Virus genome (UHGV): UHGV-1560016
Direction: 5' to 3' (one strand)
DNA length: 11,429 nucleotides
Source of the DNA: a virus
Shown here: positions 2 to 1,299 of the stretch, in pieces
Layout of the letters: each line of letters begins with the position of its first letter
Position numbering within the stretch: position 1 is the first letter of the stretch
Position numbers and translations under genes: made by a program
The notes under the pieces: model-generated
What the model saw: the letters and a program-made list of their open reading frames with translations, nothing else
Databases searched by the model: none
What the model was told of the DNA's origin: nothing

Positions 2-238
2 GATGAAAAAGAACTTGATAATGCAATTAATAAAATCATCGTAACGTCGCTCTTTTCCTGTCTCAGCGACACTCAGCAAAAACAGTTCTACGAATCGGCT
101 TTCAACATGATCGAGCGTTGTTGTTTCTGCGATGCCGACGAGTTACCTGAAAAAATCAGGAAACAGTTGGCTGATGCTCTTCGAGTGCGACTTTCTGACC
201 AATTTTCTGAAATGTACTCTCCGAATTTGGACAAATAG
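2..238 (+). CDS. Hypothetical protein, 3' part only (5' end lies outside the window); reads ...NMIERCCFCDADELPEKIRKQLADALRVRLSDQFSEMYSPNLDK*
   Basis: Hand translation of frame 2 is open from the window edge to TAG at 236-238. It is absent from the ORF track, presumably because it is 5'-truncated with no long M-initiated stretch. It lies in AT-rich DNA and overlaps the antisense ORF 156-431 by 83 nt, so only one of the two may be real. Confidence 0.3.
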   Translation, partial: DEKELDNAINKIIVTSLFSCLSDTQQKQFYESAFNMIERCCFCDADELPEKIRKQLADALRVRLSDQFSEMYSPNLDK

Positions 239-431
239 AAAAAGGCCATTTCCATTCAGGGTCTGATGGAAATACTTCAGCCTGTTCCAAAGCACGGCGT
301 AAAGAGAACACAACTCCAGCCATAATCTGATGTTTCCCATTGGTCCAGCTATCGCCGCTCTGATCTACAGGGGCGGCTATGTCGTATGACCAAACGACTT
401 CACAGTTATTGTTTAAAATCTGGACTTTCAT
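156..431 (-). CDS. Hypothetical small protein (about 91 aa from the ATG at 431; the ORF track extends it to 473)
   Basis: ATG at 431-429 (minus) is preceded by AGGTG with a 6-nt spacing. It sits downstream of the leftward promoter at 558-585. No family recognised. Overlaps the + strand partial ORF at its 3' end and contains the inverted repeat 248-273. Confidence 0.4.
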   Translation of the reverse strand: MKVQILNNNCEVVWSYDIAAPVDQSGDSWTNGKHQIMAGVVFSLRRALEQAEVFPSDPEWKWPFSICPNSESTFQKIGQKVALEEHQPTVS

Positions 432-557
432 TTCATACACCTGCTTTAACATGAGTGCCTGGTGGCACAACATGACTCAACGAATCATCCTGGACTTCAT
501 ATGCCCCAGGCGGCTACTTCGTGGGCGTCCTGCCTGTTCGTTGTTTCGCTTGGGTAC

Positions 558-624: not shown

Positions 625-1299
625 TTAGGCTTTGATTTTGTATCTTCTTGGTTTTCCTGAGAAAATCACTGTGCCAATTATAGAGCAATTACCGTTGATC
701 TTAATGTAAGGCTCAGGCCAGTTTGGGTTTAACGCTTTGAGATAACGCTGTGTCCCATCTTCTATCAACCTTTTGAAGGTGGTTTCGCCTGTATCGTGCA
801 TCAATGCAATAACGTCGTCACCGTGGCAGGCAGGTACTTCAGGATCGACAAAAATCATGTCTCCCGGGCGGTACTCATCAATCATTGAATCACCTATCAC
901 CCGCAAGATATAAGTCATTTCCCCACAGGGTACAGGGCAGGGATACGTTTCTGCTGTGCTCAAATCAACCTCAGAATATCCAACTTCTTTCCATGCTCCG
1001 GCCTGTACCCATGATATGACAGGGACTAATGTGATTTGTTTATTAGTGATTGAAACATCAGGTTTTTTTGTGATGTTCGTTGTCTGGTGTTCTTGATCGA
1101 GCCATCCGACAGGCAGGTCGAAACATTTTTCGATGTGTCGTGCCATGCTGTCACCGATATTTTTAGTAGCACCATCCCCCATAAACCTGCTGGTCTGGGT
1201 TGGCTCGCGATCAATCATAGTGGCAAAGGAAGAATTCCCGCCAACACCATCTCTCAGTTTTCTGGCGTTAGACCGCCGGATGTCATGGATTGTTTTCAT
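625..1299 (-). CDS. Phage CI/LexA-like repressor with C-terminal S24 autopeptidase domain (224 aa)
   Basis: The C-terminal half carries the S24 signature GDSM (IGDSMIDEY, nucleophile Ser) and a downstream KRL (TFKRLIEDG, general-base Lys), with LexA-like spacing. The N-terminal ~70 aa are basic and typical of a DNA-binding domain. It is divergent from a Cro-like gene and followed by its own terminator. The 224-aa size matches what I recall for e14 CohE (unverified). Confidence 0.88.
   Translation of the reverse strand: MKTIHDIRRSNARKLRDGVGGNSSFATMIDREPTQTSRFMGDGATKNIGDSMARHIEKCFDLPVGWLDQEHQTTNITKKPDVSITNKQITLVPVISWVQAGAWKEVGYSEVDLSTAETYPCPVPCGEMTYILRVIGDSMIDEYRPGDMIFVDPEVPACHGDDVIALMHDTGETTFKRLIEDGTQRYLKALNPNWPEPYIKINGNCSIIGTVIFSGKPRRYKIKA

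Follow-up and report, generated by a model that had tools for sequence, protein, structure and literature searches.

Background

The cI-N interval is described as a hotspot of mosaic diversity, in which the rexAB genes of phage lambda occupy the corresponding site and bstA lies just downstream of a prophage repressor (PMC8585504). BstA and aba constitute a defense with cognate self-immunity (PMC8585504), and in ST64B, an SfV-like prophage, induction turns on the genes that follow cI together with the lytic genes (PMC7067206). Convergent excludons are 3'-overlapping transcription units whose expression is predicted to be mutually exclusive through transcriptional interference and RNase III (PMC12288877). 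The sieB-ydaF locus of the Rac prophage is listed as a convergent excludon of E. coli K-12, and RNA-seq defines the ymfI-ymfJ genes of prophage e14 (b1143/b1144) as another one, in at least 50% of 58 MG1655 data sets (PMC12288877). Both the RNA and the protein of ymfJ rise late in the SOS response (PMC11002266).

The gene pair that we describe here lies at the left end of a window of 11,429 nucleotides (the whole stretch of DNA that was analyzed, from the virus genome UHGV-1560016) and consists of a rightward (+ strand) and a leftward (- strand) ORF that converge and overlap at their 3' ends. It occupies the same slot as ymfI/ymfJ, between the same conserved flanks and with the same block of sequence before the rightward gene, and the e14 genes are likewise convergent, with a 63-nt coding overlap and with the leftward gene as the first one after PL. 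The two pairs nevertheless lack sequence or profile similarity to each other (hhalign probability <1%), and YmfJ is basic (pI 9.1) as compared to the acidic product of our - ORF; YmfI and YmfJ share with the proteins described here the lack of an assigned function. The sieB/esc/sas locus of P22 offers a likeness as an early-left accessory locus whose output is switched by an antisense transcript and which includes self-immunity of the resident phage (PMC12197685, PMC7067206), but the antisense partner in P22 is a non-coding RNA, whereas the partner in our pair encodes a conserved protein. BstA/aba and RexAB share the repressor-adjacent neighborhood (PMC8585504) and differ in that bstA and rexAB point the same way as cI and share its expression, in that aba is a DNA element and not a protein, and in having no PADLOC or Pfam similarity to the pair. 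Most excludons overlap in their UTRs only, whereas the overlap here takes in ~40-80 nt of both coding sequences and is dual-coding; excludons are defined by overlapping transcripts, and for this pair the overlap of 83 nt of coding sequence is at the gene level, as read from the genes alone. Repressor-adjacent accessory cassettes with a convergent, excludon-like layout are of a kind already known, and what sets this locus apart is its well-supported dual-coding antisense overlap, together with the presence of a gene that annotations often miss.

The immunity region and its two leftmost ORFs

Over its first 1.4 kb the window matches a prophage of E. coli D1 (locus L001) at 100% identity and Shigella phage SfV at 98.4%. 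By sequence, this left arm belongs to an SfV/e14-type lambdoid prophage, of which it forms the immunity region. It encodes a cI-type LexA/S24 repressor, a homologue of ymfK, on the - strand at 625..1299 (assigned from the sequence and the annotation of relatives) and cro, a homologue of ymfT, at 1390-1704, together with the operator region. A preliminary description of the window had called this arm AT-rich, which is borne out by a composition of 43-47% GC versus 57-61% in the tail genes, and the coordinates that it gave for the ORFs, the ribosome-binding site, their overlap and an inverted repeat all proved exact on re-checking.

The + ORF is open in the window from base 2 and ends at a TAG codon (2..238, TAG at 236-238). 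It had been taken to be cut by the window edge, which is correct, but only three codons (Met-Thr-Phe) are missing, the ATG lying 8 nt to the left of window base 1. Extension of the window leftward, as had been suggested, into the 100%-identical D1 locus recovers the full gene of 81 aa at L001 5993-6238. The product (UniProt A0A0L0XXI4_ECOLX) matches PHROG 3311 over its full length (81/81 positions, E = 3e-55) and has homologues of 58-64% identity in Salmonella, Klebsiella and Yersinia. Its Shine-Dalgarno sequence, AAGGAA, is kept in all of the loci compared.

The - ORF (156..431, ATG at 431, stop at 156-158) encodes 91 aa and is the first gene after PL; it corresponds to RefSeq WP_021563905.1, to UniProt A0A229AGU8_ECOLX and to orf33 of SfV, where it is annotated from an earlier start as a protein of 98 aa. 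The in-frame upstream ATG codons at 452 (the orf33 start) and 473 (which would give 105 aa) are not conserved, and because all homologues begin with MKVQ and have their own Shine-Dalgarno sequence, we place the start at 431. The Shine-Dalgarno sequence AGGTG (- strand, 438..442, 6 nt before the ATG) is represented in diverged loci by GAGG, GAGGA or AAGGA at the same position. The protein matches PHROG 3195 (E = 4e-65, 91/98 positions). A first set of diverged homologues, from Salmonella and metagenomic contigs, is 58-68% identical to it, and further ones extend down to 46-50% identity, with remote relatives beyond. The stop codon varies among relatives, giving products of 91, 93, 122 or 146 aa; the ORF is conserved up to about residue 85, and past that point there is no selection in the - frame, because the tail lies in DNA that varies along the + frame. 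Such artefactually long - frames probably explain why gene callers drop the + ORF, which is unannotated both in the D1 RefSeq locus and in the SfV record.

Evidence that both ORFs are genes

The preliminary description, noting that the two ORFs are antisense to each other, had concluded that probably only one of them is real. There is some reason for such a view. The D1 RefSeq locus and SfV annotate the - ORF only, and among the RefSeq hits listed the annotation under the match names a single hypothetical protein, which in D1, the one RefSeq locus opened, is the - ORF. Long antisense ORFs arise by chance, moreover, and the - frame is open for 122-146 aa in some relatives in the absence of selection. 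Matches to PHROGs, for their part, indicate only that both ORFs were called as genes somewhere. What decides the question is the evolutionary evidence.

That evidence comes from an alignment of 10 distinct versions of the module, with pairwise DNA identities of 63-77%. Where the two ORFs do not overlap, each is under purifying selection in its own frame and not in the opposite one: pN/pS (Nei-Gojobori) is 0.28 for codons 1-61 of the + ORF, as compared to 1.47 when that stretch is read in antisense, and 0.38 for codons 1-71 of the - ORF, as compared to 1.79 in antisense. Across the 10 modules, entropy in the segment that is exclusive to the + ORF peaks at the third codon position of that ORF (1.01 versus 0.43 and 0.31), and in the segment exclusive to the - ORF it peaks at the third position of the - codons (0.88 versus 0.53 and 0.30). 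Both genes retain an ATG and an upstream Shine-Dalgarno sequence in all lineages compared, and the distance from ATG to ATG is exactly 439 nt in the 10 distinct modules, with zero indels. The convergent overlapping partner is also kept in the remote loci L018, L019, L024 and L026, where the two start codons are 436-439 nt apart, and the L024 pair still matches both PHROG 3311 and PHROG 3195.

The coding overlap itself (156..238, both strands, 83 nt) includes a dual-coding core of ~41 nt (176-217) that is conserved in all lineages. In this core the + frame reads (S/A)EALRERL opposite (R/K)VALEE in the - frame, with invariant residues in both. Synonymous divergence, which is 0.5-0.9 outside the overlap, falls to ~0.1-0.5 inside it in both frames, and this collapse is the signature expected of dual coding.

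The two genes have also traveled together. Loci were fetched both ways, by way of homologues of the - ORF (Salmonella, metagenomes) and by way of homologues of the + ORF (Klebsiella, Yersinia); every locus fetched with the - ORF has a + homologue opposite and 3'-overlapping, and all of those fetched with the + ORF contain the - ORF, even where gene callers had missed it. By tblastn both genes are present in 16/16 loci, and the pair is convergent and 3'-overlapping in every related locus examined, whether from E. coli, Salmonella, Klebsiella, Yersinia or metagenomes. Being conserved as coding sequences across genera, both ORFs are far beyond what chance would leave, and on this comparative evidence they are genuine protein-coding genes under purifying selection. 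The view that one is a chance antisense frame must explain a pN/pS of 0.28-0.38 in each non-overlapping part with values above 1 in the opposite frame, the conservation of both starts and Shine-Dalgarno sequences, and the intactness of both genes in remote relatives that PHROGs 3311 and 3195 still recognize; it is highly improbable and, at the level of evolutionary evidence, refuted.

A further argument against a full-length - ORF had been drawn from an 8-bp inverted repeat within it (- strand, 248..273), which with the GGCC and T-rich run beside it was read as a weak terminator. The arms are exactly where they were reported (ATTTCCAT at 248-255 and ATGGAAAT at 266-273), and the local fold is stable (-14.2 kcal/mol, z = -3.4 versus shuffles). 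Perfect 8-bp inverted repeats of this kind number 8 in the window, as compared to 1.7 expected. As an intrinsic terminator the element is rejected: its stem has only two G-C pairs, a terminator scan does not call it, and it is a lineage-specific feature absent from all 8 diverged modules. The adjoining conserved sequence 'AAAAGGCCA', which contains the GGCC and the T-run, consists of the invariant Trp-Pro-Phe codons of the - ORF, which is itself conserved to about residue 85. With the repeat absent in homologues and the GGCC and T-run coding, the hairpin is no argument against the full-length - ORF. A search of positions 2-431 against Rfam found nothing.

Expression signals around the pair

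The segment 553..585 on the - strand is, from its sequence, PL with its operators. The predicted promoter is a near-consensus sigma-70 type (11/12 matches), with a -35 element TTGACA at 585-580, a 16-nt spacer and a -10 element CATAAT at 563-558. An operator palindrome, GGTACAnnnTGTATC, overlaps PL and recurs beside cro. A perfect palindrome, GGTACATTATGTATC, at 553-567 covers the -10 element and has 5 matches in the window versus 0.58 expected, among them a one-mismatch copy at 1378-1392 by cro; it is also part of a set of repeats that PL has in common with the cI-cro intergenic region. The finding of PL reading from 585 to 558 together with its operator palindrome agrees with the earlier suggestion that the ORFs lie downstream of a repressor-controlled leftward promoter. 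An intrinsic terminator after cI (- strand, 613 to 594), found by the terminator scan and annotated in SfV, separates cI from PL and would thereby insulate the - ORF from the repressor transcript. The - ORF is accordingly the first ORF of the predicted early-left transcript, after a leader of ~120 nt.

Within this 5' UTR is an element of ~70 nt (- strand, 479..548) that consists of a near-invariant core, GAACAGGCAGGACGCCCACGAAGTAGCCGCC, followed by a hairpin in which three pairs show compensatory changes across 10 loci. The element is present in e14 and SfIV, both of which lack the pair, as well as in PhiR29 and several Salmonella and Klebsiella loci, and in Yersinia prophages it is found on the far side of the gene pair. 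From this distribution the PL leader element is a backbone feature that is not tied to the pair. It matches no Rfam family. The idea of an HK022-type put RNA found no support, as the element does not resemble HK022 put and is not repeated near PR. As the product of the first PL gene, the - protein might by position have been a lambda N-type antiterminator, a reading that is rejected on its pI of 4.95 and its lack of an Arg-rich N-terminus; an N-type protein also pairs with its own nut site, and the leader element is found in e14 and SfIV where there is no - ORF.

The + ORF is preceded by a conserved block (L001 5925-5965, 30-70 nt left of window base 1) that is annotated as a terminator in SfV. 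Its sequence, GCCTG-TCTTTTC-ACCAC-TT-CAGGC-TCG-GTGGT-ATCCT, lies ~35 nt before the + ATG and is conserved in all lineages. Two inverted repeats are interleaved in it, GCCTG/CAGGC and ACCAC/GTGGT, and each shows compensatory changes from one lineage to another. The block contains a candidate promoter for the + gene, TTcACC-N16-TGgTATCCT (8/12 consensus matches, with a TGn motif), the spacer of which is a covarying inverted repeat. It is also found ahead of ymfI in e14 and of another rightward cargo gene in L007 (at ~5112). As far as can be judged from sequence, it behaves as a portable expression signal for rightward cargo, and it may be a promoter with an operator or else a structured RNA. An H-type pseudoknot is doubtful, as its loops would be too short in L018 and in Yersinia.

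Protein properties and family searches

Both proteins are computed to be small (~10 kDa), acidic (pI 4.5-5.6) and soluble, with no transmembrane segment and a maximum 19-residue Kyte-Doolittle hydropathy of at most 0.9. The + protein has an invariant Cys-x-(A/I/V/T)-D motif and the - protein a conserved Trp-rich core. The earlier impression that neither belongs to a recognizable family has held up. Scans of both proteins against Pfam, NCBIfam and PADLOC gave nothing significant, a sequence-profile search of the PDB had no match below E = 0.01, both proteins are labeled hypothetical in databases, and their only family matches, PHROGs 3311 and 3195, have no assigned function. Structure prediction, proposed earlier along with profile searches, brought no family either: the AF2 model of the + protein has three helices (pLDDT 67) and in Foldseek searches of the PDB and BFVD had no hit better than E = 1, and for the - protein the predicted structure was too poor to use (pLDDT 44). 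When 1.84 billion representatives were searched exhaustively with an HMM profile of the - ORF, there were only 17 matches, all of the same family; the most remote relatives described above come from this search. A profile search of genome contigs with the + ORF profile gave no confirmed locus. Among known anti-phage defense systems (PADLOC-DB v2) there was no genuine match for either protein; the + ORF had only a spurious match to SspC (E = 0.035) and the - ORF none.

Three described classes were considered and set aside. A type II toxin-antitoxin system is not indicated, in that the genes are convergent and not co-directional and have no domain in Pfam, NCBIfam or PADLOC. Type I toxin-antitoxin loci are likewise convergent and 3'-overlapping but, unlike the pair, encode a small hydrophobic membrane toxin together with an antisense RNA, whereas both proteins here are acidic and soluble with the low hydropathy given above. 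SieB is a membrane protein, and superinfection exclusion of the SieB type is rejected for soluble proteins that have no transmembrane segment and no SieB Pfam match at E <= 1.

Distribution of the pair and content of the slot

The pair is present in 426 of 5426 complete E. coli genomes (~8%), and among GenBank phages only in SfV, vB_EcoM-720R4 and SKA5. Of the best 80 IMG/VR contigs, all of them identical copies that add diversity of context and not of sequence, 77 have an intact + ORF, and the sequence that lies 200-260 nt ahead of the - start, toward PL and the repressor, takes 24 distinct forms. Diverged copies of the pair adjoin at least four different repressor types. Conversely, relatives with the same repressor and operator-PL region, including e14, which also has the same left flank, carry unrelated genes in the slot: the convergent ymfI/ymfJ (63-nt overlap) in e14, two rightward ORFs in SfIV, a 242-aa ORF in PhiR29 and small ORFs in Ayreon. 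The earlier remark that this position is typical for cargo is confirmed, and by these comparisons the pair is most likely a mobile and conserved accessory cassette of two genes that occupies the hotspot beside the lambdoid prophage repressor.

Possible roles of the pair

The reading that we favor, as probable though by no means secure, is that two real genes form one conserved and mobile repressor-adjacent cassette with excludon-like, mutually exclusive expression. The - gene would stay off in the lysogen, with its product appearing at once upon induction or infection, and the + gene would be expressed from a weak or moderate promoter of its own in the upstream block when PL is repressed. As each transcript would run antisense through the other gene, the firing of PL would shut the + gene off in the manner of an excludon-type switch. 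In the most speculative step of this scheme, the + protein would be an accessory factor of the lysogenic state and the - protein an immediate-early factor in the same process, perhaps a counter-factor or a self-immunity protein, by analogy with the logic of SieB/Esc/sas or BstA/aba. Physical overlap forces co-inheritance, so that the co-occurrence of the two genes suggests functional coupling and is no proof of it. The pair may be exclusion, anti-defense or toxin-like cargo of the sort that the preliminary description had in mind for this position; such a role has a point against it, as does a defense role, in the lack of a family match for either protein, and exclusion in particular has a further one in their acidic and soluble nature, which is unlike that of membrane exclusion proteins.

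Inhibition of host proteins is a typical role of small acidic early proteins, which lends some weight to the idea that the two genes are unrelated neighbors, the - gene encoding an immediate-early host-takeover or anti-defense protein and the + gene being an independent moron, with 3' ends that were merged by genome compaction and are locked together only by the overlap. The slot does house many unrelated cargo genes, and the overlap does enforce co-inheritance. A point mutation could remove either gene, however, yet both are under purifying selection with the same geometry in all lineages, and e14 independently has a convergent overlapping pair in the same slot, which suggests that the layout itself is selected; we regard mere neighborhood as possible but unlikely. 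Another proposal, for which we see little probability, is that the pair serves the phage's own developmental control (lysis-lysogeny or induction, with functions like those of cIII, an anti-repressor or ant/sar) and is not host-directed cargo. The pair does adjoin PL and cI and is found only in prophage immunity regions, and convergent antisense control is known from the immI region of P22 and from lambda oop/cII (PMC7067206). Against this, it sits by several unrelated repressor types, and the same cI, cro and operators occur in related phages that have other genes instead of the pair, so that the switch can do without it.

The layout that the pair shares with type I toxin-antitoxin loci (convergent, with overlapping 3' ends), the strict pairing and the predicted contrast of lysogen-state and induction-state promoters would also suit a toxin-antitoxin-like addiction or abortive module, in which a harmful PL-driven - protein would be neutralized, when it leaks in the lysogen, by the + gene through its protein and/or its antisense transcript. 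The - protein, though, has no transmembrane segment, is not basic and contains no toxin domain, both proteins are acidic and lack a PADLOC or Pfam match, and type II systems are co-directional operons, all of which makes such a module decidedly unlikely. Returning to the cassette with mutually exclusive expression, its bolder extension is that the pair is a previously unrecognized switch module of prophages, made up of two proteins, that works by means of the antisense coding overlap itself and in which the + protein acts in the lysogen, e.g., as a new exclusion or abortive-infection effector. We consider this extension a rather improbable one; if true, it would make a new defense-with-self-immunity system out of two orphan protein families. 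The pair is, in our estimation, a reasonable candidate for an accessory function coupled to the lysogenic/lytic switch rather than a demonstrated new mechanism.

The locus is of interest in other respects as well. The + gene, in spite of its presence in ~8% of complete E. coli genomes, is often left unannotated, and callers in relatives tend to favor the - frame, sometimes in an artefactually extended form. To our knowledge, well-supported antisense dual-coding gene pairs are uncommon, and this one is a clean, evolution-backed example of antisense-overlapping genes with a dual-coding segment that is conserved across genera. It is also a compact and experimentally tractable cassette in a hotspot of rexAB, bstA and sieB-like functions.

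Other observations on the window and its relatives

The cro (ymfT) gene of the window is cut near codon 56 (window ~1556) and continues in frame into sequence whose usual place is immediately ahead of the tail sheath gene. Compared with E. coli D1, ~19 kb comprising the replication, lysis and head genes are absent. This junction occurs in 0 of 5426 complete E. coli genomes, so that the source is either a deleted prophage remnant or a chimeric assembly. Some E. coli genomes (hits H72-H75) have a pair that breaks off at window position 194, where a phage tail gene follows directly; these represent a further deletion derivative of this type of prophage.

The - ORF domain of remote relatives follows, as part of one fused protein, an N-terminal 'MEFKDLP...' domain of ~85 aa (L018 4001-4579), and in L007 (4572-4772) the same domain is a separate small gene further along the PL operon; it matches only PHROGs 9419, 2151, 1363 and 33007, all of which are entries with no assigned function. 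At the translation-initiation region of the + ORF (L001 5978-5995), the 15 nt AAGGAAAATCAAATG recur unchanged at the start of bstA, within the aba self-immunity element of Salmonella prophage BTP1 (PMC8585504), an identity that may be due to chance or to a common cassette junction. Just left of the window, on the - strand of the D1 locus (L001 5690-5913), is a match to an STnc100-like sRNA (43.4 bits, E = 1e-7; the gathering score is 47), which underlies a pseudogene that PGAP annotates as a 'frameshifted hypothetical protein'. The flank that contains this match is constant in 72 of the best 80 IMG/VR contigs bearing the pair.
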